DNA of 24,373 nucleotides from an uncultured Thermoanaerobaculia bacterium (GCA_964553295.1 CAZKKP010000010.1:1-24373); one strand, 5' to 3'. Counted from the first letter of the stretch, positions 5,871-19,002 are shown. Numbers and translations are program-made. Notes: a model not told the origin generated them from the letters alone.

Positions 5871-7434
5871 AGTAGACGGTGGTGCCGTGATCGGGCTGCG
5901 ACTCGACCCAGACCCGTCCGCCATGTCGCTCGACGATGCGGTGGACGATCGCCAGCCCGACACCGCTGCCGCCATACTCGTCGGCCCGGTGTAATCGCTC
6001 GAACAGCTGGAAGACCCGCTCTGCGTGTCGCATGTCGAAGCCCACTCCGTTGTCGCGCACGAAATAGACCACGCCGGCTTCGGCGCCCCCGGGCCGGCTC
6101 TCGCCCAGAGTGCCGACCTCGATCCGGGCCGGCTGCCGTATGCGACTGAACTTGAAGGCGTTGCCCAGGAGGTTGTCGACGCACAGCCGGAGCAGCGTCG
6201 GGTCGCCACTGGCCTCGATCCGCTCCGCTACCCGCAGCTCGAGCTGCCGGCCGGGCTCGAGCAGGCAGAGCTGCGCCGCCGCTTCCCGGGCATAGCGCGC
6301 GAGGTCGACCGGGCAGCTGGTCATCACGGTCCGGGAGGCTCGCGAGACCATCAGCAGGTCGTCGATCAGGCGCTCCATCCGCTCACCGGCGCGCAGCACC
6401 CGCTCGAGGTAGTCGGTTGCCACCTCGCCAAGCTGGGCGCCGTACTCCTCGAGCAGGGCGCCCCCGAAGCCCCGAATGGCCCTGAGCGGCGTCTGCAGAT
6501 CGTGAGAGACGGTGTGGCCGAATGCCTCGAGATCGCGATTTGACGCCTCGAGCCGGCGGTTGAGCTCGCGCAGTGCCTCCTCGGCCTGCCGCCGGTCGGT
6601 GATGTCCCGAACCACCCACACCACCAACGACCGCCCTCTCGGATCGACGTGCAACGTGGCCCTCACCGCCCACCAGCGCGTTCGCCCCGAGTCGTCGGCG
6701 AGCTCGAGATCGTCGTTGACAGCGCCACCGATGCCGCGCACCCGGTCGTCGATAACCTGCAGACGCTCCGCCACCGCTGGCCCGAAAAGCTGGTCCGCGG
6801 TCTTGCCGAGGGTGATCGTCGGCGGCTGCCCGACCAGCGCCGCTGCGGCCTCGTTGACCTGCACCCAGCGCCCGCGAAAGTCGGTCGCGAAGACCGCCTC
6901 GGGAACGGCGTTGACCAGCGTGAAGAAGTGGTCCCGTGCTTCCGCGAGCTCCCGCTCGAGACGACGCCTCTCGGTCACGTCCCGCGCCACACCCGCCGTC
7001 CCGGCGATGTCTCCACGGCTGTCGTACAGCGGGACCTTGATCGTCTCGATCCAGGTCCGCCCTTCGGCGAGCAACCCGGCGAGCTGCTCTTCCACGCGGC
7101 GGACCTTCCCGGTGGCCATCACGAGCTGGTCATCGTGGACGTAGCCCCGGGCCAGGTCCTCCGGCCAGATGTCGAAGTCGGTCTTTCCTATCAAGATGTC
7201 CCGGTTCACGCCGCACGACTGAAGGAACGGCTCGTTGACCTCCAGGAAACGGCCTTCGCGGTCCTTGAGCCAGGCGATCTCCGGAAGGCTGTCGAGGAGC
7301 GAGCGCAGTGCTGTTTCCGTCGCTGCACGATCGCTCATCTCAGAGGCGGCCTCCGCCGACCCGCCGCGTCGAGGCGCCGTCGCGTCGAGGTCGGAGTTGG
7401 ACCCGTCGAGGGTGGGGCTTCCGGGGACAGCCAC
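5854..7434 (-). CDS. Cytoplasmic PAS-PAS sensor histidine kinase, 526 aa from GTG 7434 or 494 aa from ATG 7338
   Basis: Two PAS/PAC units (IAWLKDREGRFLEVN...IETIKVPLYDSRGDIAG; VFATDFRGRWVQVN), H-box VSHDLQTPL, N-box VDNLLGNAFKF, VRDNGVGFD, GSGVGLAIV. No TM segment. The 731-aa ORF call extends this gene antisense into the next one. Confidence 0.92.
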   Translation of the reverse strand: MAVPGSPTLDGSNSDLDATAPRRGGSAEAASEMSDRAATETALRSLLDSLPEIAWLKDREGRFLEVNEPFLQSCGVNRDILIGKTDFDIWPEDLARGYVHDDQLVMATGKVRRVEEQLAGLLAEGRTWIETIKVPLYDSRGDIAGTAGVARDVTERRRLERELAEARDHFFTLVNAVPEAVFATDFRGRWVQVNEAAAALVGQPPTITLGKTADQLFGPAVAERLQVIDDRVRGIGGAVNDDLELADDSGRTRWWAVRATLHVDPRGRSLVVWVVRDITDRRQAEEALRELNRRLEASNRDLEAFGHTVSHDLQTPLRAIRGFGGALLEEYGAQLGEVATDYLERVLRAGERMERLIDDLLMVSRASRTVMTSCPVDLARYAREAAAQLCLLEPGRQLELRVAERIEASGDPTLLRLCVDNLLGNAFKFSRIRQPARIEVGTLGESRPGGAEAGVVYFVRDNGVGFDMRHAERVFQLFERLHRADEYGGSGVGLAIVHRIVERHGGRVWVESQPDHGTTVYFTLDG

Positions 7435-7440
7435 AGGGCG

Positions 7441-7508
7441 ATTGTACCCGATGGGAACACGCAGCTGGGTGAGAGCTCTGCGCTTCTGTCGGCCGGGCGA
7501 GCTAGACT
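7441..7508. promoter_or_regulatory. Back-to-back -10 elements for the two divergent histidine kinase genes
   Basis: Minus strand TACAAT (7446-7441)-N6-GTG(7434, in frame with the kinase); plus strand TAGACT (7503-7508)-N8-ATG(7517). Confidence 0.5.
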
Positions 7509-7516
7509 GCCGGTCG

Positions 7517-9367
7517 ATGGTCAGCGCCGTTGACGCTCCGGAGATCGCAATCCTCCTCGTCGAGGACGCGGACGACGATGTCGCGCTGATCATCCGCGAG
7601 CTGGGCCGTAGCTCGCTGCGCTGTGCGATCCACCATGCAGCTACCGTTGACGCGGCTGCGGCGGCCATCTCCGCCCAACCTCCCGCTCTGGTGCTGTCGG
7701 ACTTCCGACTGCCGCCGAACGACGGCTTCGACCTGCTTCGCGCCGTCCAGGCGCTCGACCCGGAGCTGCCGGTGGTCTTCGTGTCCGGCGCGGTCGGCGA
7801 GGACGTGGCCGCCGAGCTCATGCGCTGTGGCGCCCGCGACGTCGTCAGCAAGCGGAACCTCGCCCGCCTGCCGCTCACCGTCCAGAGAGTGCTCGACGAG
7901 GCCGCCACACGCCGCGAGCACCACCGGGCGCAGCAGGCTCTGCGGGAATCCGAAGCCCGGATCAGAGCCCTGTTGACCACCTTGCCGGTGGGGGTCTTCC
8001 GCGTCGGGCCGGACGGTCGGATCGAGTCGGCCAACCCGTTTCTCTGCATGATGGTCGGGGCTTCAGACGAGAGTGAGATGCTCGGCAGGCACTGGCGCGA
8101 CTTCGTCGTCGAGCAACCTCGAGAAGATCTGCCGCCCGGAGGACTGGGAGCAGACGTCGTCGAGCTGGAGCTTGCGATCCGCCGTCTCGATCAGACCGAG
8201 TTCTGGGGACACGCGCGAGTTCGCGTCAGTCCGGGTAGGGACGGGGCGCCGCACGTCGACGGCACCCTCGCCGACGAGACCGCTCGTCACAGCGTCCAGG
8301 ATGCGCTGCGTCGCGGAAAGGAGGAGTGGGAGCGGACATTCGACGCGGTGCACGAGCTGATCATGCTGACGGACCCGGTCCACGTCGTCGAGCGGGTCAA
8401 CCGGGCCGTCGCCCAGAGGCTGGGTTGCCATCCTCGAGAGATCGTCGGTCAGACCTGGGCCGAGATCGTTGCGCAGCGACTCCCCCCGGTGGACCTCCGG
8501 CAGCTGATCGAGGCGGTGCGCTCGGGAAAGCCGGTCGAGTTCGACGTCGCCAGCGAGCAGCTGGGGGGAGACTTCAGGTTCAGCGCCACGCCGCGAGTGG
8601 ACCATGCCGGCGCGATCATCGGCATGATCCTGGTCGGACGCGACGTCACCACGCAGCGGCAGGTGGCGGAGCTGCTGCAGCGCCAGGCGGTCGTCGACCA
8701 GGCCGAGCACATCTTCAGGATTTTCAGGCACGAGGCCGGCAACGCCCTGAACACCCTCAAGACAACCCTGAGCGTCTTCAGGCAGGGTTTCGTGTCCTTC
8801 GACGACGCCAAGCGCGAGACCTACTTCGGTCGCTGCTTCGAGAGCCTCCGCATCGCCGAGCAGCTGCTCGCCGCTCTTCGCTCGTACCAGACTCTCGACC
8901 GAGTGACGCTCAGCGAGGTCGACGTCGCCGCCCTCCTCGAATCACGTGCCGACATGCTCTTCGCAACGGCTCGCGAACGGGGCGTTACCTGCGAGCTGCA
9001 CTGTCCCGACGCGCCCCAGGTGATCGCGGCCGATGCGGACGCGCTGGTCAGGGTGCTGCTCAACGTCGTCGACAACGCCCTGGCTGCCACGCAGGACAGG
9101 GACGCGCCGCGCATCGACATCGATCTGCACCTCGCGAGCGCTCACACCACGATCTCGATCACCGACAACGGCGCCGGCATTCCCTCCGACGTGTTGCCGA
9201 GGATCTTCCAGCCCCTCTTCACGACCCGGGCCGAGGGCACCGGGATGGGCCTTGCGATCGTCCAGAAGCTGATGCTGCGGATGAACGGAGTGGCGGAGGT
9301 CCGCAGCGTCGTCGACCAGGGCACGGTCGTCGAGCTGCGCTTCCCGGCGGCGGGCCCGGCCTCATGA
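7517..9367 (+). CDS. Hybrid receiver-PAS-PAS histidine kinase, 616 aa
   Basis: REC domain (ILLVEDADDD, VLSDFRLP, VVFVSG), two PAS domains, H-box FRHEAGNALN, N-box LLNVVDNA, ITDNGAGI, IFQPLFTT, GTGMGLAIV. No TM segment. Confidence 0.92.
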   Translation: MVSAVDAPEIAILLVEDADDDVALIIRELGRSSLRCAIHHAATVDAAAAAISAQPPALVLSDFRLPPNDGFDLLRAVQALDPELPVVFVSGAVGEDVAAELMRCGARDVVSKRNLARLPLTVQRVLDEAATRREHHRAQQALRESEARIRALLTTLPVGVFRVGPDGRIESANPFLCMMVGASDESEMLGRHWRDFVVEQPREDLPPGGLGADVVELELAIRRLDQTEFWGHARVRVSPGRDGAPHVDGTLADETARHSVQDALRRGKEEWERTFDAVHELIMLTDPVHVVERVNRAVAQRLGCHPREIVGQTWAEIVAQRLPPVDLRQLIEAVRSGKPVEFDVASEQLGGDFRFSATPRVDHAGAIIGMILVGRDVTTQRQVAELLQRQAVVDQAEHIFRIFRHEAGNALNTLKTTLSVFRQGFVSFDDAKRETYFGRCFESLRIAEQLLAALRSYQTLDRVTLSEVDVAALLESRADMLFATARERGVTCELHCPDAPQVIAADADALVRVLLNVVDNALAATQDRDAPRIDIDLHLASAHTTISITDNGAGIPSDVLPRIFQPLFTTRAEGTGMGLAIVQKLMLRMNGVAEVRSVVDQGTVVELRFPAAGPAS

Positions 9368-11249: not shown

Positions 11250-12632
<1,383 letters not shown>

Positions 12633-12759: not shown

Positions 12760-12785
12760 CGTCCATCGGGTGTGGCGAGGCTCTC

Positions 12786-13361
12786 GTGAACCCGAAGTCG
12801 CTCCCTATCGTCGTCCTGGTGGACGATGACCATGCCTTTCTGCTGAGCCTGGCCGCCGGTCTCGACGTTCTCACCGAGGAGGTCGAGTTCCGGGTCGCGA
12901 CCGGAGGTCGACAGGCAGCGGCACTGCTCCGGGATCGGCCGGTGGCGGTCCTCGTAACCGACCTGAACATGCCGGAGATGGACGGCTGGGCTGTCCTCGA
13001 GATCGCGCTGACGGCTCGCCCGCAACCCGCGGCGATCGTCATCACGGCAGACTTCTCGACCGACACCGGCGAACGTCTCGCCCGCTTCCAGCCGGTGGCG
13101 GTCATCGAGAAGCCCGTCGACCTTCACCAGCTGATCATGCTGATCCGCAGTGCACTGCGAGGCCCGGTCGCCCCTGACGGCTGCGAGGACAGCGACGCCG
13201 AGCAGCCCCGCACGAGGTGCGTGACCCGTCGCATCTCGGCGGCGCTCGAGCGGTGTGTGTCGCAGCTCGAGCACGTGCTTCGGAACGCCAGACATCCGGC
13301 GTCCGCATCTGCAGCGTCGCCCGCCGGGGCGACGATCGGACCAAGGAGACACCAATGGTGA
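12786..13361 (+). CDS. Receiver-domain protein with a short C-terminal extension, 191 aa
   Basis: VVLVDDD, LVTDLNMPEMDG, VITA and IEKPVD motifs; no recognisable output domain. Confidence 0.88.
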   Translation: MNPKSLPIVVLVDDDHAFLLSLAAGLDVLTEEVEFRVATGGRQAAALLRDRPVAVLVTDLNMPEMDGWAVLEIALTARPQPAAIVITADFSTDTGERLARFQPVAVIEKPVDLHQLIMLIRSALRGPVAPDGCEDSDAEQPRTRCVTRRISAALERCVSQLEHVLRNARHPASASAASPAGATIGPRRHQW

Positions 13362-14122
13362 GCACTCGCCGGAAGAGCGTCATCCCACCCGCCCAGGTCG
13401 AGGGCCTTCGAGGCACCCTCGCCATGACCAACGTCTTCGACCTCTTCCAGTTCCTCAACTCGAGCCGAAAGACCGGGCAGCTTCTGGTCGACGCCGACTC
13501 CGAGCAGCTCGAGGGCCGGGCGTACTTCTCCACCGGAGCGCTGGTCCACGTCACGGCCGGCACGGCGTCCGGCATCGACGCCCTGGTCACGATGTGCGGC
13601 TGGGAGCAGGGAACCTTCGCTTTCTACGACGACGTCCTGTCACCGCAGGTGACGATCAACATGCCGATGCAGCACGCGCTGATGGAGGCCGTGCGCATCC
13701 ACGACGAACGTCGACGCGCCGAGCAGTCGAGCGGTCGACCAGAGCAAGGAGGAGAGACCATGAATCGTGCGCGAAGCTCCACCGACGTCCTCGAGGACTT
13801 CCTCAAGGTTCCGGGCGTCCTGTCCGCCGTCGTCATCGGCCGCGACGGCTTCCTCATCGAGTCGGCCGGCGCTTCCTCGGCGGTGATCGTCGAGACCCTC
13901 GGCGCCGCCCTCGCACACGCGGTCAACGGCGTCGAGGAGATGGGCAACGAGCTCCAGGTCAACAAGTTCCAGGACCTCTTCGTGGAGTACGGACGGGCCG
14001 TGATCATGTGCCGCCCGGTCGGAGACGCGGTCATCGCGGTCGTCGCGCCGGACGCGTCGAAGCTGGGCATCATCCGCCACAAGGTCAAGCCGCTCGTCGA
14101 AGAGCTCGCTGCCCACTTCTGA
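13355..14122 (+). CDS. DUF4388 (PatA_N) domain fused in frame to a Roadblock/LC7 (MglB-like) domain, 255 aa
   Basis: AAGGAG RBS at 13343; LRGTLAMTNVFDLFQFLNSSRKTGQLLV...GRAYFSTGALVHVTAG...WEQGTFAF is DUF4388-like; VPGVLSAVVIGRDGFLIE...LFVEYGRAVIM...KLGIIRH is Roadblock-like. No stop codon separates them. Confidence 0.87.
   Translation: MVSTRRKSVIPPAQVEGLRGTLAMTNVFDLFQFLNSSRKTGQLLVDADSEQLEGRAYFSTGALVHVTAGTASGIDALVTMCGWEQGTFAFYDDVLSPQVTINMPMQHALMEAVRIHDERRRAEQSSGRPEQGGETMNRARSSTDVLEDFLKVPGVLSAVVIGRDGFLIESAGASSAVIVETLGAALAHAVNGVEEMGNELQVNKFQDLFVEYGRAVIMCRPVGDAVIAVVAPDASKLGIIRHKVKPLVEELAAHF
13760..14122 (+). CDS. Probable separately translated Roadblock/LC7 protein from an internal start, 120 aa
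   Basis: Strong AAGGAGG (13746-13752) precedes the in-frame ATG 13760 exactly at the domain boundary. Confidence 0.6.
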   Translation: MNRARSSTDVLEDFLKVPGVLSAVVIGRDGFLIESAGASSAVIVETLGAALAHAVNGVEEMGNELQVNKFQDLFVEYGRAVIMCRPVGDAVIAVVAPDASKLGIIRHKVKPLVEELAAHF

Positions 14123-14139
14123 TGGCAAGGAGGTCAGAG

Positions 14140-14655
14140 ATGCAACTCGAGCTCAAACACACCTTCGACGAGTCCACCTTCCGCCATTCCTTGAACGGTC
14201 ACGAGTTCGTTCTCCACTGCCACCACTACATGACGCTCGCGACCAAGATGGCCGAGGACTTCGCCGACCTCGGTGGGCCGAAAATCCTGCGCGAGGTCGC
14301 AGAGGACACCATCCGGCCGGTCCTCGACAGCTACTTCCGCGACCACTCCGTCAGTGCCCCCGCTGACCGCCTCGACATTGCCGGGCAGTACTTCACCGCC
14401 ATGGGACTGGGTCTCATGGACATCAAGGGCGACGCCAGCGGCGGCGAGGTCAAGCTCCCCCACAGCCACGTCGACGAGGGGTGGCTGAAGAAATTCGGCG
14501 CCCATGATGCGCCGGTCAACCACTTCACCTGCGGCTTCGCCGCGGCGGTGTTCGCCGCCGCCTTCGACAAGCCGGCGCGGGCCTACCAGGTCGTCGAGAA
14601 GGCGTCCCTGGTGATGGGGGCCCCGGCTACCGTTCTCGCCGTGACGGCGAGCTGA
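14140..14655 (+). CDS. V4R (4VR)-fold protein with an HCHHY motif, 171 aa
   Basis: AAGGAGGT RBS; FVLHCHHY, AMGLG, HSHVDEGW, VNHFTCGFAAAVF, and E-x-S-x-x-x-G at the position of the V4R E-x-x-C-x-x-x-G motif. Confidence 0.78.
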   Translation: MQLELKHTFDESTFRHSLNGHEFVLHCHHYMTLATKMAEDFADLGGPKILREVAEDTIRPVLDSYFRDHSVSAPADRLDIAGQYFTAMGLGLMDIKGDASGGEVKLPHSHVDEGWLKKFGAHDAPVNHFTCGFAAAVFAAAFDKPARAYQVVEKASLVMGAPATVLAVTAS

Positions 14656-14668
14656 CAGGGGGTGAAGC

Positions 14669-15250
14669 ATGACTGTGATGCGTGACCAGGTCGTCAAAAA
14701 CCTCGTCGAGATCGAGGTCAAGGCGAACGAGGACGGGCTGATGCCCGCCTTCAACGTGCTTGTCAACCAGCTGCCTTCGGCGTTCTGGAACACCCTGGCG
14801 GAGCGGTTCATGGCCGTGACGCCGCCCGACCGCAAGGCGGAGATGGAGCGTGCCCTGGTGAACTGCGCCTACGAGTGCGGCTACCACACCGGTTACGGCA
14901 TCATCACCTCGCCCGAGTTCCAGGCGGTGGTGATGCCCCAGGTGACCGAGGGCGCCAAGGACGTCCTGCGCGGCGCCTATGCGGTGTTCACCGCCTGGGG
15001 ATGGGCGAAGTCCGGGATCGTCCAGGTCAAGGACGGCGAGCGCATGGTCGTCCGCGCCGTCGACTACTACGAGGCGGACAGCGGCGGCGAGGGCAAACGC
15101 GCCTTCATGATCCGTGGTGTCAGCCAGGCGTTCATGGAGCTCGCCTTCGCCGATCCCTACCCGAACGGCATGAACACCTTCCAGTGCGAGCAGACCGCAG
15201 GGATCGAGACCGGCGACTCCTACGGCGAGTTCGTCGTGACCCGCATGTAA
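14669..15250 (+). CDS. Second V4R (4VR)-fold protein, 193 aa
   Basis: CAYECGYHTG, AWGWA, VDYYEA, FMIRGVSQAFM and QCEQTAGIETGDSYGEFVV match the V4R C-terminal pattern. Confidence 0.75.
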   Translation: MTVMRDQVVKNLVEIEVKANEDGLMPAFNVLVNQLPSAFWNTLAERFMAVTPPDRKAEMERALVNCAYECGYHTGYGIITSPEFQAVVMPQVTEGAKDVLRGAYAVFTAWGWAKSGIVQVKDGERMVVRAVDYYEADSGGEGKRAFMIRGVSQAFMELAFADPYPNGMNTFQCEQTAGIETGDSYGEFVVTRM

Positions 15251-15271: not shown

Positions 15272-15297
15272 CAGGGCCCGGGCAACCGGGCCCTGTT
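15272..15297 (+). terminator. Strong intergenic hairpin (attenuating terminator or mRNA stabiliser)
   Basis: CAGGGCCCGG-GCAA-CCGGGCCCTG: a perfect 10-bp stem with a GNRA loop, followed by only TT. Confidence 0.6.
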
Positions 15298-15319: not shown

Positions 15320-16462
15320 ATGAGCTTCGTCTATCTCAACCATGCCGCAACGTCCTTCCCGAAGCCGCCCGAGGTCCTCGATGCGGTGGCTGCGGCGTTG
15401 GCCGCGCCGCCCGCCGACCCGGGCCGCGGCGGGCTGGACTCGGACACGGTCGAGATCTGCCGGCGGAGGATCGCCGAGCTGTTCGGGCTGCGCCGCCCGG
15501 AAGCCGTGTCGATCCAGCCCTCGGCGACGCACGCACTCAACGCGGCGATCCTCGGGCTGCTCGAAGACGGGGGCCACGCGGTGACCACGCCGCTCGAGCA
15601 CACCTCGGTGCTCCGCCCGCTGCACCACCTCGCGGCGCATCACGAGGTCGCCTGCGACTTCGTCGAGCCTCGCGCAGACGGCCGCCTCGAGCCCCTCGAC
15701 ATCGCCCGCGCGGTCATCCCGTCGACCCGTCTCGTCGTGGTCTGTCACGCCGCCAACTCGACCGGCGTGGTGCAGCCGGTCGAGGAGATCGCGGACGCCG
15801 TCGCCGGCGCCGGCGTTGCCCTGCTCGTCGATGCCTCTCAGACCGCCGGCGTGGTCGGTCTTCGAATGAACGATCTTGCCGGACGGGTTCTGGTCGCCGT
15901 CGCCGGTCACAAGAGCCTGTTGGGACCAGCCGGTACCGGCGCACTGCTGCTCGCCGATGACGATCTGCCGCAGACCGTCTTCGGCGGAACCGGGGTTCGC
16001 AGCGAGAGTCTGGACCACCCCGCCGAGCTGCCGCTGCGCCACGAGGCAGGCACACCCAACCTGCCGGCCATCGCGGGCCTGAGCGCCGGCCTGGAGGTTG
16101 TCCGCGCCCGGGGGATCGACGAAGAGGCGGCGAAACGGAACCGACTGGTGCACCGTCTGCGTCAGCGCCTTGCCGCCATCCCAGAGGTCCGGCTCGCGCC
16201 TCTCGCCCGGGACGACGGGCGGGCGGGGGTCGTCGCATTCAACGTGGCGAACTGGCGCTCGGAGGATCTTGCGTTCGCGCTGCACAGCGCCTTCTCCATC
16301 GTCACCAGGGGAGGGCTGCACTGCGCGCCACTGGCCCATCGCTTCCTGGGTCTGTTCCCCGAGGGAACGCTCCGCGCCAGCTTCGGCTGGTCGAGCACCG
16401 AGGACGATGCGGACGCCCTGGCGGATGCGGTCGCCCGGATCGTGCGAGGGGGCCACCCATGA
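15320..16462 (+). CDS. Class V aminotransferase, cysteine desulfurase-like PLP enzyme, 380 aa
   Basis: YLNHAATSFPKP, LEHTSV, HAANSTG, VDASQTAG, PLP lysine in AGHKSLLGPAG, HEAGTPN, catalytic cysteine in RGGLHCAP, and LRASFG. Confidence 0.92.
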   Translation: MSFVYLNHAATSFPKPPEVLDAVAAALAAPPADPGRGGLDSDTVEICRRRIAELFGLRRPEAVSIQPSATHALNAAILGLLEDGGHAVTTPLEHTSVLRPLHHLAAHHEVACDFVEPRADGRLEPLDIARAVIPSTRLVVVCHAANSTGVVQPVEEIADAVAGAGVALLVDASQTAGVVGLRMNDLAGRVLVAVAGHKSLLGPAGTGALLLADDDLPQTVFGGTGVRSESLDHPAELPLRHEAGTPNLPAIAGLSAGLEVVRARGIDEEAAKRNRLVHRLRQRLAAIPEVRLAPLARDDGRAGVVAFNVANWRSEDLAFALHSAFSIVTRGGLHCAPLAHRFLGLFPEGTLRASFGWSSTEDDADALADAVARIVRGGHP

Positions 16463-16758
16463 TCCAACAGGTGGCTGAGGTGAAGGAGGTCGAAACCTGC
16501 CTGGACAGCTCGAGGATGTGCGAGCTCATCCTGACCGGTCCGGCAGACGTGGCGCTCGTCGAGAGGCTCGGCGCCGTGACACAGCTCCAGTTCTTCCCCC
16601 ACTTCCCGCGTCCCCTGTTTCGTGGTGATCGCCCCCGGGCCTACGTGGTCCAGGGGGTGATCGGATCCGCGACACTCCGCGTCACGTTGTCGCCAGAGGC
16701 TGACCCTTCAGCCCTGGATTCGCTCACACGGTGCATCGAGGGGCACTGCGATGACTGA
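16459..16758 (+). CDS. Small Cys-containing hypothetical protein, 99 aa
   Basis: ATGA overlap with the desulfurase and an 8-nt overlap with the next gene; motifs ETCLDSS, FFPHFPRPLF and VVQGVIG; four cysteines. Confidence 0.75.
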   Translation: MIQQVAEVKEVETCLDSSRMCELILTGPADVALVERLGAVTQLQFFPHFPRPLFRGDRPRAYVVQGVIGSATLRVTLSPEADPSALDSLTRCIEGHCDD

Positions 16759-17656
16759 CCTGGCTGCGACGGTTGACAGCCCCATCCTGCCGACAGCGGA
16801 GTGCTTCGACTTCGAGCTGCTGCTCGTGCAGGCTGCCGCCGAACGACGCACCGGGCGGATCGTGATCGAACGCGACGGTGGTGAGTTCGGCCAGGTCTTC
16901 ATTCACGGCGGCCGGGTGGCCTGGGCCACCTGCGTCGACCAGGGCGAGAACCTGGGCACCTTCCTGGCACGGCTCGGCCACCTCCGCGACGAGCAGCTCG
17001 CCGAGCTGCGCCAGGAGCACTCGCGACGCAAGGGCGCCTGCAAGCTCGGCGAGCTGCTCGTCGAGAGCGGTGTCATCACACGAACGCGCCTGCGCAGCTG
17101 CCTCAAGCTGCACCTTCGGATGGCCATCGCCCGCCTCCTGCAGATCCCGCGCCTGACAGCCGTGCTGGTCGCGGATCCGAGGAGCTCCAACGAGAGCATG
17201 AGCTTCCCCCTCTACCAGCTGGTCCCCTCGTGGTGGCAACTGCAGGCGCCGCCGGGCGCCGGCGGCCAGGCCGACGACGCCTGTGCCCAGGCAGCCTGCC
17301 TCGGGAGCCTGAACGACGTTCCGGGGTTCCTCGGCGCCCTGGTGCTCGACTCCGACGGCGAGGCCATCGCGCAGTGCGGCTTCACAGGCGCCGCGGCCGA
17401 CCACGCGCCGAGGGTCGCCTGCTGGATCGGCGCCCTCCTCGGGGATGACGTCGAGCTCCCCGGCGGCGCGGAGTCCGGGTTCGTCGAGGGCGAATGGGGC
17501 ACCCTGGTCGCGCGCCGTATCGAGGGTGCAGACGGCCTCTCGGTGGCGGTTCTCCTCGGACCCGAAGGCAAGCCGGGAACTGCCCTGCACCGGCTGTCCT
17601 CCATCACCCCGGCGCTACTCAGCGCCTTCAGCGAGGCACAGGAAGGAGCGAGCTGA
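16751..17656 (+). CDS. DUF4388-like domain with MshEN-like repeats and a degenerate Roadblock-like C-terminal domain, 301 aa
   Basis: RTGRIVIE...GQVFIHGGRVAWA; LGTFLARLGHL and KLGELLVESGVIT; VPGFLGALVLDSDGEAIA...FVEGEWGTLVARR. Confidence 0.72.
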   Translation: MTDLAATVDSPILPTAECFDFELLLVQAAAERRTGRIVIERDGGEFGQVFIHGGRVAWATCVDQGENLGTFLARLGHLRDEQLAELRQEHSRRKGACKLGELLVESGVITRTRLRSCLKLHLRMAIARLLQIPRLTAVLVADPRSSNESMSFPLYQLVPSWWQLQAPPGAGGQADDACAQAACLGSLNDVPGFLGALVLDSDGEAIAQCGFTGAAADHAPRVACWIGALLGDDVELPGGAESGFVEGEWGTLVARRIEGADGLSVAVLLGPEGKPGTALHRLSSITPALLSAFSEAQEGAS

Positions 17657-17657
17657 A

Positions 17658-18470
17658 ATGTCCCACAACATCGCGCTGGTGAGCTCGAAAGGCGGCGCCG
17701 GGAAGACCACGACAGCCCTGAACCTGGCGGTCGCTCTGGCCGAGCGTGGTCGGCGGACGCTGATCGTCGACCTGGATCCTCAGGGGGCGATCGGGCTCGC
17801 TCTCGCCCGCGGCGACGGAGATTGGCCCGGCCTCGCGGAGCATCTCGCGGAGAACCTCCCCGTGGCGGATCTCATCCTCGACACGAAGCTCCCGAGCCTG
17901 TCGATCCTCCCCCGCGGCCGCCTTGACGCCTCTGACAACGTTCAGTTCGAGGCTGCGCTGGCTGCGCCTGGTGTGCTCCGAGGTGTGCTCGAAGGCGCAT
18001 CTGACGCCTTCGACTTCGTGCTCCTCGACACGCCTTCAGGCCTCGGCAGCATCCCACGGTGCGCACTGTCGGTCGCCCGCTTCGCGCTCGTTCCGCTGCA
18101 GGCGGAGCCACTCGCCCTCCGTTCGCTGTCCCAGGTTCTTCGCGTGTTGGCCCACGTTCGCAGCGAGGAGAACCCCGAGCTCGAGCTGCTGGGAATCCTG
18201 CCCACCATGGTGCAGCTCGACAACGAGACGTCGTTCGGCGTGCTGGGAACGGCCTGGGCGCATCTCTCCGGCGTCCTGGAGACGGTAATCCCACGCTCGG
18301 ACGCTTTCGGCCGGGCAAGCTCGATCGGTCTTCCGGTGGGCTTCCTGGCAGGTCGGACCCCGCCAGAGGCCCGCCGATTCGAGATACTGGCCGACGAGAT
18401 CGAAGCGAACATCGCCACCCTGCTCGGAATCGGAGGTACCGATGACAAGGCCCAACGTGAGCTCATTTGA
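17658..18470 (+). CDS. Orphan ParA/MinD-family ATPase, 270 aa
   Basis: Deviant Walker A KGGAGKTT, IVDLDPQG, LLDTPSGLG, VPLQAEPLAL, GILPTM and ETVIPR; AAGGAG RBS. No ParB in the window. Confidence 0.93.
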   Translation: MSHNIALVSSKGGAGKTTTALNLAVALAERGRRTLIVDLDPQGAIGLALARGDGDWPGLAEHLAENLPVADLILDTKLPSLSILPRGRLDASDNVQFEAALAAPGVLRGVLEGASDAFDFVLLDTPSGLGSIPRCALSVARFALVPLQAEPLALRSLSQVLRVLAHVRSEENPELELLGILPTMVQLDNETSFGVLGTAWAHLSGVLETVIPRSDAFGRASSIGLPVGFLAGRTPPEARRFEILADEIEANIATLLGIGGTDDKAQRELI

Positions 18471-19002
18471 CCTCGAGGTCGCAGCGGGCCTTTCGCGCAT
18501 CCTGCGGGAGCGCCGGCCTACGACCGACCCACTCCCGACCTCGCCCGCGGCACGGTTCAGCCGGCACGCCCCGGTCCAGGCCGCGCCCCCGGCGATCGAA
18601 CCGGCCGACGGTCAGGATCCCGAGCTCGAGCTGGTCAAACTTGACAGCTGGGAAGTGTTCCTCGCCTGGAGCCTCGAGCTCACCAGGTCCCGTGCAGGTT
18701 TCGTCGTCGACTCCCAGGGCTTCGTGATTGCGAGCCGAGGCAACGTACCGAAGGACGGGTTTGACGGCATCGGGGCCGAGCTGTGCTACGCGATGGACCA
18801 GCTCGACAAGATCAGTCCCGAGTCCGGCCACCTCAGAGTGCTCGAGCTCGGGTTCACCGGCAGCCGCATCACGGGCATCAAGATCGCGGGTGAGGCACTG
18901 GGCCCCCTGGTCATCGGGTTCTTGGGGTCGCGCCCACTCACCGACGAGCTTCGCGACTCCATCGTCCGTCAGCTGGACTTGAACCGGGAACGGATGTCAT
19001 AG
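18442..19002 (+). CDS. Hypothetical protein with a Pro-rich linker and a Roadblock-like C-terminal domain, 186 aa
   Basis: GGAGGT precedes ATG 18442; overlaps the ParA-family gene by 29 nt; RAGFVVDSQGFVIASRG resembles the Roadblock beta-hairpin 'VVDxDGxxI'. Confidence 0.65.
   Translation: MTRPNVSSFDLEVAAGLSRILRERRPTTDPLPTSPAARFSRHAPVQAAPPAIEPADGQDPELELVKLDSWEVFLAWSLELTRSRAGFVVDSQGFVIASRGNVPKDGFDGIGAELCYAMDQLDKISPESGHLRVLELGFTGSRITGIKIAGEALGPLVIGFLGSRPLTDELRDSIVRQLDLNRERMS

Follow-up and report, generated by a model that had tools for sequence, protein, structure and literature searches.

A candidate cysteine desulfurase–acceptor pair and two sensor-like proteins appear to form a portable four-gene module

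Introduction

Why should a cysteine desulfurase-like enzyme be translationally coupled to a small cysteine-containing protein amid genes for signal transduction, and where would its sulfur go? The question is raised by positions 15,320–16,758 of a 24,373-nucleotide stretch of DNA from an uncultured Thermoanaerobaculia bacterium (GCA_964553295.1, CAZKKP010000010.1:1-24373), the whole of which we call the window. The original prediction, made from this DNA alone, took the small protein for a possible new sulfur acceptor and suggested that the pair might act on neighbouring V4R or Roadblock proteins and might thereby link cysteine or redox status to the switch. Our analysis confirmed both genes of the pair, joined by an ATGA overlap, and points to a module of four genes, all on the plus strand:

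14119–14655, +, p178, first module protein, probably V4R-like (invariant motifs, protein-language-model neighbours)
14669–15250, +, p193, second module protein, predicted V4R fold (structure-model matches)
15320–16462, +, CSD, class II cysteine desulfurase-like enzyme dependent on pyridoxal phosphate (PLP) (PF00266, SufS-type structures)
16459–16758, +, p99, small protein of 99 residues, candidate desulfurase partner or persulfide acceptor (ATGA overlap, family, co-fold)

Results

Four genes travel together across phyla

We took 27 loci from species-representative genomes, added metagenome contigs and relatives of the genome that holds the window (the own genome), and located all window proteins in them. 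The 27 loci span Acidobacteriota, Myxococcota, Chloroflexota, Planctomycetota and Armatimonadota. The original prediction had left it to be seen whether homologues of the small protein keep this desulfurase as their neighbour; they do so directly after CSD in 24 of the 27 loci, and p99 stands beside p178 and p193 in 25. The three exceptions to the first count are a contig end (L040), a locus where p99 is shifted to the front of the same operon (L026), and an orphan copy in an Anaerolineae metagenome-assembled genome (MAG; L030:961-1257), which carries an in-frame stop, is preceded and surrounded by repeats, has no desulfurase or V4R gene nearby, and is probably a decayed remnant. p178 adjoins p193 in every locus with enough flank. 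Among 60 related genomes four (G005, G018, G038, G050) contained p99, those four also contained p193, and neither gene turned up in the rest. An even sampling of 250 genomes from the phylum yielded p193 in two, G157 and G204, the former with all four genes together.

The genes occur in two orders. Type A, present in full in the window, reads (NtrC-REC, where REC is a receiver domain)–PATAN/Roadblock–p178–p193–CSD–p99–(PATAN)–ParA–p186 and is found in MAGs of Thermoanaerobaculia and Holophagae, and partly in some Polyangia and Anaerolineae. Type B reads CSD–p99–(conserved helical protein of 60 residues)–p178–p193, has no Roadblock, PATAN or ParA gene, and is found in Myxococcota, Planctomycetota, Paludibaculum fermentans (L045), Chthonomonadales and others. 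CSD, p99, p178 and p193 thus appear to be a portable module present in at least five phyla, in which the constant companions of the CSD–p99 pair are p178 and p193, and the Roadblock, PATAN and ParA genes are optional. The proposed tie to V4R-type proteins is borne out by this joint travel. Roadblock proteins, which the original prediction had also named as targets, are unlikely ones because many module copies lack any Roadblock, PATAN or ParA gene; for the same reason its term "signalling operon" fits the window, where signalling genes do adjoin, as one of several output contexts rather than as the defining one.

The same data bear on whether CSD and p99 are housekeeping genes or unrelated passengers that happen to sit in this operon. 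The own genome holds many Aminotran_5 paralogues, and one more could in principle have come to lie at any site; against this stand the four genes kept together in both orders, the exact co-occurrence of p99 and p193 in the 60 relatives, and a quick tree that places 23 of 26 module enzymes in one clade with a Shimodaira–Hasegawa-like approximate likelihood ratio (SH-aLRT) of 99. That monophyly covers the 23 only, the three most distant module enzymes (L016, L045, L046) not being separated from own-genome paralogues. The sole orphan p99 copy, as described, is a decayed one. Synteny therefore contradicts a passenger role, which we regard as very improbable.

The enzyme retains a desulfurase active site

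CSD runs from an ATG at 15320 for 380 residues to a TGA at 16460–16462; an alternative TTG start at 15296 would give 388 residues, and our residue numbers follow this longer version. The Aminotran_5 family (PF00266) covers the protein from end to end (212.9 bits against a cut-off of 21.5; profile positions 1–371 of 371), and its closest solved relatives, likewise aligned end to end, are SufS-type cysteine desulfurases (5b7s, E 2e-39; 1t3i, E 2e-34). The PLP lysine K206, carried by a GHK motif, aligns to the SufS lysine, and the active-site loop RGGLHCAP, with C343, fits the class II catalytic-cysteine consensus RxGxHCA (PMC8300815). In an alignment of 26 module enzymes H102, N154, D179, Q182, H205, K206, R338, G340, L341, C343, A344, P345 and R360 are invariant, so that both the lysine and the cysteine noted as intact at the outset are shared by the whole group. 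Since these catalytic residues do not vary and the ratio of nonsynonymous to synonymous substitution rates (dN/dS) is ~0.20 against a 73%-identical relative, the catalytic apparatus of CSD is intact and under selection. An apparent frameshift in the enzyme gene of G005 was rejected, as it reflects a run of N and the gene is not broken.

Among curated NCBIfam models the nearest is TIGR01977 (am_tr_V_EF2568; 336.3 bits, under its cut-off of 377), followed by the SclA selenocysteine lyase (NF040779; 254.7 bits, far under 525), while SufS (TIGR01979; 174.3 bits, cut-off 475.1) and CsdA (TIGR03392; 83 bits, cut-off 493.6) also stay below their thresholds. With both leading scores under the curated cut-offs, CSD sits beside the TIGR01977 and SclA groups and outside either. 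The own genome encodes at least eight further Aminotran_5 paralogues, one of which adjoins a SelD match (contig C276) and another the sole NifU_N scaffold gene (contig C559); the module enzyme therefore appears to be an extra, dedicated copy. A SufE-family gene was not detected in this genome, whose completeness is 93%. As a separate observation, an Anaerolineae MAG carries a second desulfurase-like gene, 38% identical to the window's CSD, ~9 kb downstream of its module (L021:19342-20244, minus strand).

CSD might instead move no sulfur to a protein, acting either as a selenocysteine lyase like SclA or as a C–S lyase that produces or breaks down a small molecule (sulfide, alanine or a thiol) for the V4R pair to bind. 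With SclA of Enterococcus faecalis (EF2568) and the TIGR01977 group, its nearest curated models, it shares a short amino terminus and the class II loop. The own genome also seems to use selenium: its contig C466 holds SelD with an in-frame TGA and hence probably a selenoprotein. Moreover, V4R/PoxR-type domains bind small molecules (PMC10933270), and sequence alone cannot separate sulfur from selenium specificity (bioRxiv 10.1101/2020.02.07.939272). The SclA score is, however, far below its threshold, and unlike SclA, whose H100 aligns to T in the window's CSD and to N in the module consensus, the enzyme has neither SelD nor molybdenum hydroxylase context. A lyase role is weakened because a different Aminotran_5 paralogue already stands beside SelD on contig C276 and because two module genomes, G157 (94% complete) and G204 (98% complete), contain no SelD above cut-off. 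A free product would also leave the always-present one-cysteine partner, predicted to dock on CSD, without a role. On balance we consider a lyase role distinctly doubtful.

p99 is a small protein with one invariant cysteine

p99 is a real gene, as its third-position GC content (GC3) of 0.80 and a dN/dS of ~0.19 against a 73%-identical homologue indicate. Its ATG at 16459 overlaps the CSD stop as ATGA, with GAGGGGG located 6–12 nucleotides upstream, and its end at 16758 overlaps the ATG of the next gene (16751) by 8 nucleotides. A word-based search returned one relative, an exhaustive profile search 175 cluster representatives (E up to 0.001) of an unnamed family. The representatives listed are 59–185 residues long, mostly ~100, and none has an additional domain; fused forms were likewise absent from the best 150 matches of a length-unrestricted search, in which the longest protein again had 185 residues.

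The window copy does contain the four cysteines originally reported (C14, C21, C92, C96), of which C14 alone is conserved: 128 aligned sequences show no change at C14 or G66 and hardly any at P52, and C14 is also kept in every locus-encoded copy spanning that position, whereas the other three cysteines are lineage-specific, C96 being gone already in the 73%-identical relative. The family, with a mean column identity of 24%, is marked by a hairpin (E/D)-x-C-(L/F)-D followed by L-x-Y-F-P-x-F-P-R-P-y-F-R and then Q-G-V-x-G. Neither p99 in Pfam or NCBIfam nor any of the 128 members at E up to 1 matched a family, the SufE/CsdE family (PF02657) included, and a p99 profile run against sequences of the PDB gave only chance-level rows.

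The AlphaFold2 (AF2) model of p99 has a predicted local distance difference test (pLDDT) score of 92.7 and follows the order strand–strand–helix–four strands–helix, with C14 at the tip of the first hairpin. It would be a generic two-layer α/β sandwich with no clear relative. A Foldseek search of the model, the check first proposed for this protein, yielded no PDB match at E < 0.001, and a wide VIA search returned nothing but generic two-layer sandwiches, the best PDB match being a half-barrel resembling TATA-binding protein (TBP) with Z 7.2, within the range of chance arrangements. SufE/CsdE, SufU and TusA were not among the best PDB matches, an absence that does not exclude a shared fold. The closest models in the ESM Atlas belong to further unnamed proteins of ~95 residues; more distant ones are a domain within archaeal proteins that combine a phosphoadenosine phosphosulfate (PAPS) reductase with ferredoxin (template modelling (TM) score 0.63–0.67) and a ThiF-family protein (0.59). 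That the p99 fold may recur in sulfur-transfer enzymes we treat as a lead only.

p99 is predicted to dock beside the catalytic loop of CSD

Co-folding of the CSD and p99 alignments gave a score of 0.73 over three runs, compared with 0.00 for the best of three controls; in the calibration, which is only rough here as our alignments were self-made, 58 of 80 solved complexes attained that mark, as did 2 of 110 mismatched pairs. At least 73% of contacts are common to the runs, with a partner pLDDT of at least 85. On the CSD side the predicted interface comprises residues 321–334, a strand leading into the C343 loop, and 381–388, and on the p99 side residues 43–53 and 63–76, which are the most conserved positions of the family (2.48 versus 1.54 bits per column). 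These models support binding of CSD through the most conserved motif of p99, and the conserved E12-C14-D16 hairpin, lying outside the interface, would fit a separate chemical site. The near-constant adjacency to CSD, the one invariant cysteine and the co-fold score together make the suggestion of a new partner or acceptor a plausible one.

Binding as such would also suit a non-catalytic p99, which regulates or stabilises CSD or acts as an adaptor tethering it to the V4R pair, C14 being structural or a metal ligand. Class I desulfurases have regulatory or stabilising partners of this kind in ISD11, frataxin/CyaY and IscX. For p99 the docking surface that lies away from C14, the generic sandwich with its TBP-like best match, and a sequence unlike known acceptors all agree with such a role. 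A lone invariant cysteine on an exposed hairpin in an otherwise variable family is, however, what one would expect of a chemical role, and class II enzymes need an acceptor, of which no known family is encoded nearby. A purely non-catalytic role therefore seems unlikely to us, yet it deserves to be kept in view.

p178 and p193 resemble ligand-sensor domains

Neither p178 nor p193 matched a Pfam or NCBIfam family, and the V4R model (PF02830) detected no p193 alignment member at E up to 10 and no p178 member at E up to 1. When the profiles of the two proteins were run against PDB sequences, only chance-level rows came back. The AF2 model of p193 (pLDDT 85), in contrast to these sequence searches, superposes on the full sensor domains of the phenol sensors DmpR (Z 16.8) and PoxR (Z 16.7) over 167–168 residues, matches MopR with a Foldseek E of 2e-07, and resembles the V4R protein MJ1460 (Z 11.1) and Bet3 (Z 10.8; Bet3/TRAPPC3 about 10–11). 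p193 is thus predicted to have the V4R or DmpR–PoxR sensor-domain fold, a group of folds that form ligand-binding dimers with a structural zinc site (PMC10933270). It is also the most conserved module member, at 50–94% identity across phyla and a dN/dS of 0.08, and its C70 is invariant within E-C-G-Y-H-T-G-x-G-I. One p193 homologue (P0258), 73% identical to that of the window, carries the label of a Methanoregulaceae archaeon MAG, which may reflect either gene transfer or a binning error.

p178 has the invariant motifs R-H, V-L-H-C-H-H and S-H-V-D-E-G-W-x-K-K-W. Its profile matches that of p193 weakly and co-linearly (hhalign probability 16%, E 0.0016), and its nearest protein-language-model clusters carry V4R, DUF5943 or XylR_N (score 0.97), so that p178 is probably V4R-like as well.

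DmpR, PoxR and MopR are sigma-54 activators with sensor (XylR_N plus V4R) domains. The p193 model covers the whole of this domain in DmpR and PoxR, and its carboxy-terminal C-x-Q-x-x-G-I-E-x-G-D-x-x-G-E-F segment falls at the place of the zinc cysteines of V4R domains. Archaeal V4R genes often lie beside Roadblock genes, and the module genes of the window adjoin Roadblock genes too. Unlike the phenol sensors, p178 and p193 stand alone with no AAA+ or DNA-binding output, and unlike V4R proteins they escape the Pfam model, have most of the usual zinc cysteines replaced, and come with new invariant His/Cys motifs and a desulfurase of their own.

Genomic context of the module

The window has ~70% GC, and overlapping frames were told apart by third-position GC and homology. 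Between 11.2 and 19.0 kb the plus strand forms a single tightly packed gene row, in which the four module genes are flanked by:

11250–12632, +, NtrC-type sigma-54 activator
12780–13361, +, receiver protein
13352–14122, +, PATAN (DUF4388)–Roadblock fusion (DUF4388 72 bits, Robl_LC7 44 bits), a type A upstream context gene outside the core module and missing from type B loci
16751–17656, +, second PATAN (DUF4388) protein (Pfam), type A downstream context
17655–18470, +, ParA/MinD-like ATPase (Pfam), type A downstream context
18442–19002, +, p186, type A downstream context

The downstream trio is conserved in Thermoanaerobaculia-type loci only. Residues 98–120 of the second PATAN protein weakly match an MshEN-type cyclic-di-GMP-binding motif (NF053729, 28.6 bits, below the cut-off of 38). 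The remainder of the window encodes kinases, a peptidase, a methyltransferase and a MazE-like gene, and, in agreement with the original prediction, the 24 kb contain no isc/suf scaffold or tRNA-thiolation gene.

In type B layouts (14 loci) the helical protein of ~60 residues constitutes a fifth module member; it matches no Pfam family, and the window yielded no counterpart. Its gene lies at:

L014:373-552
L032–L046, between p99 and p178
L059 and L060, upstream of p178

L059 (G204:C83, positions 6301-9205), from a 35%-GC genome of the same phylum as the window, carries REC-PATAN, the 60-residue protein, p178, p193 and p99 consecutively, and no desulfurase gene lies next to them. Four type B loci from Planctomycetota and Myxococcota carry a gene for a methyl-accepting chemotaxis protein directly upstream of CSD, so the module would there be attached to a different signalling output:

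L032:4755-6176
L035:7087-8850
L041:7323-8816
L039:2-598

Discussion

The question posed by the locus is where the sulfur of a dedicated desulfurase would go. Class II enzymes are reported to require a specific acceptor, for example SufE, SufU or CsdE (PMC8300815). Because of this dependence, the lack of a detected SufE-family gene and the single invariant cysteine of p99, we read CSD and p99 as a private desulfurase–acceptor pair; conserved synteny in turn makes the V4R pair its likely recipient. That p99 is the dedicated persulfide acceptor of CSD and serves the V4R pair is, in our judgement, an evenly balanced proposition.

In the mechanism that we propose, CSD would move sulfur from L-cysteine onto C343 as a persulfide, and p99 would use its conserved FPxFPRPxF/QG surface to dock close to the catalytic loop. 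The invariant C14 at the tip of the β-hairpin would accept the sulfur, which p99 would then hand to the p178/p193 pair. A sulfur-containing or metal–sulfur group might be held there by the invariant His/Cys residues of the pair (HCHH and H-x-D of p178, E-C-G-Y-H of p193), which suggest a metal–sulfur or persulfide site. The loaded V4R pair would be the sensory element, feeding the PATAN–Roadblock–ParA genes in the window and chemoreceptors elsewhere.

Several points weigh against this mechanism. Persulfide transfer, the acceptor role of C14, the choice of the V4R pair as target and the identity of the bound group are all matters that we infer. p99 has no detectable likeness to SufE, CsdE, SufU or TusA, and C14 falls outside the confidently placed interface residues of a co-fold whose calibration is, as stated, approximate. 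The V4R fold of p178 depends on a weak profile match and on language-model neighbours, and the p178/p193 pair, with only two invariant cysteines, falls short of what a classical four-cysteine cluster requires. Finally, G204 keeps p178, p193 and p99 together with its nearest CSD-like gene (40% identity) on a separate contig, C101.

Compared with known systems, CSD and p99 resemble SufS/CsdA-type desulfurase–acceptor pairs in that an enzyme of the PLP type, which has the RxGxHCA loop and retains every SufS-type active-site residue, is adjacent and translationally coupled to a small protein with one conserved cysteine, predicted to dock beside the catalytic loop. They differ in that p99 shows neither detectable sequence likeness nor a clear structural relationship to SufE, CsdE or SufU, that CSD is shorter (380 residues) and falls under the SufS, CsdA and TIGR01977 cut-offs, and that the conserved neighbours are V4R-fold proteins with no SufBCD, TcdA or IscU partner. 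A further parallel is the molybdenum cofactor sulfurase ABA3/MOCOS, in which a NifS-like domain adds sulfur to a cofactor that a partner binding domain carries. By analogy, the module too would couple a dedicated NifS-like enzyme to a ligand-binding unit that could take persulfide sulfur, but it has no MOSC domain and its proteins are separate rather than fused.

Taken further, the module may be a self-contained sensory unit of a new kind, in which a V4R-fold heterodimer bears a sulfur-derived prosthetic group (a persulfide, a polysulfide or a His/Cys-ligated iron–sulfur centre) installed by a private desulfurase via p99 as a new sulfur-carrier family, and plugged into PATAN–Roadblock–ParA switches, chemoreceptors or sigma-54 activators. 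We put this wider picture forward tentatively, as a possibility that falls short of even chances.

The literature that we searched contained no paper describing the module and none joining V4R with cysteine desulfurase, persulfide, NifS or iron–sulfur. To our knowledge, only three acceptor families have been named for class II desulfurases, SufE, SufU and CsdE, so what the locus may offer is a desulfurase–acceptor pair whose partner family and type of client are both new, the acceptor part of which could fall either way. Experiments may be feasible in the carrier Paludibaculum fermentans, a named strain whose genome is recorded in NCBI RefSeq. If p99 proved to be a fourth acceptor family, it would define a branch of sulfur trafficking that ends neither in iron–sulfur housekeeping nor in tRNA modification but in two proteins of ligand-sensor fold connected to signalling genes. 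For V4R/Bet3-fold proteins, few of which have a known ligand apart from the phenol sensors, this would supply a concrete and testable cofactor hypothesis, and the occurrence of the module beside such different outputs would be explained.

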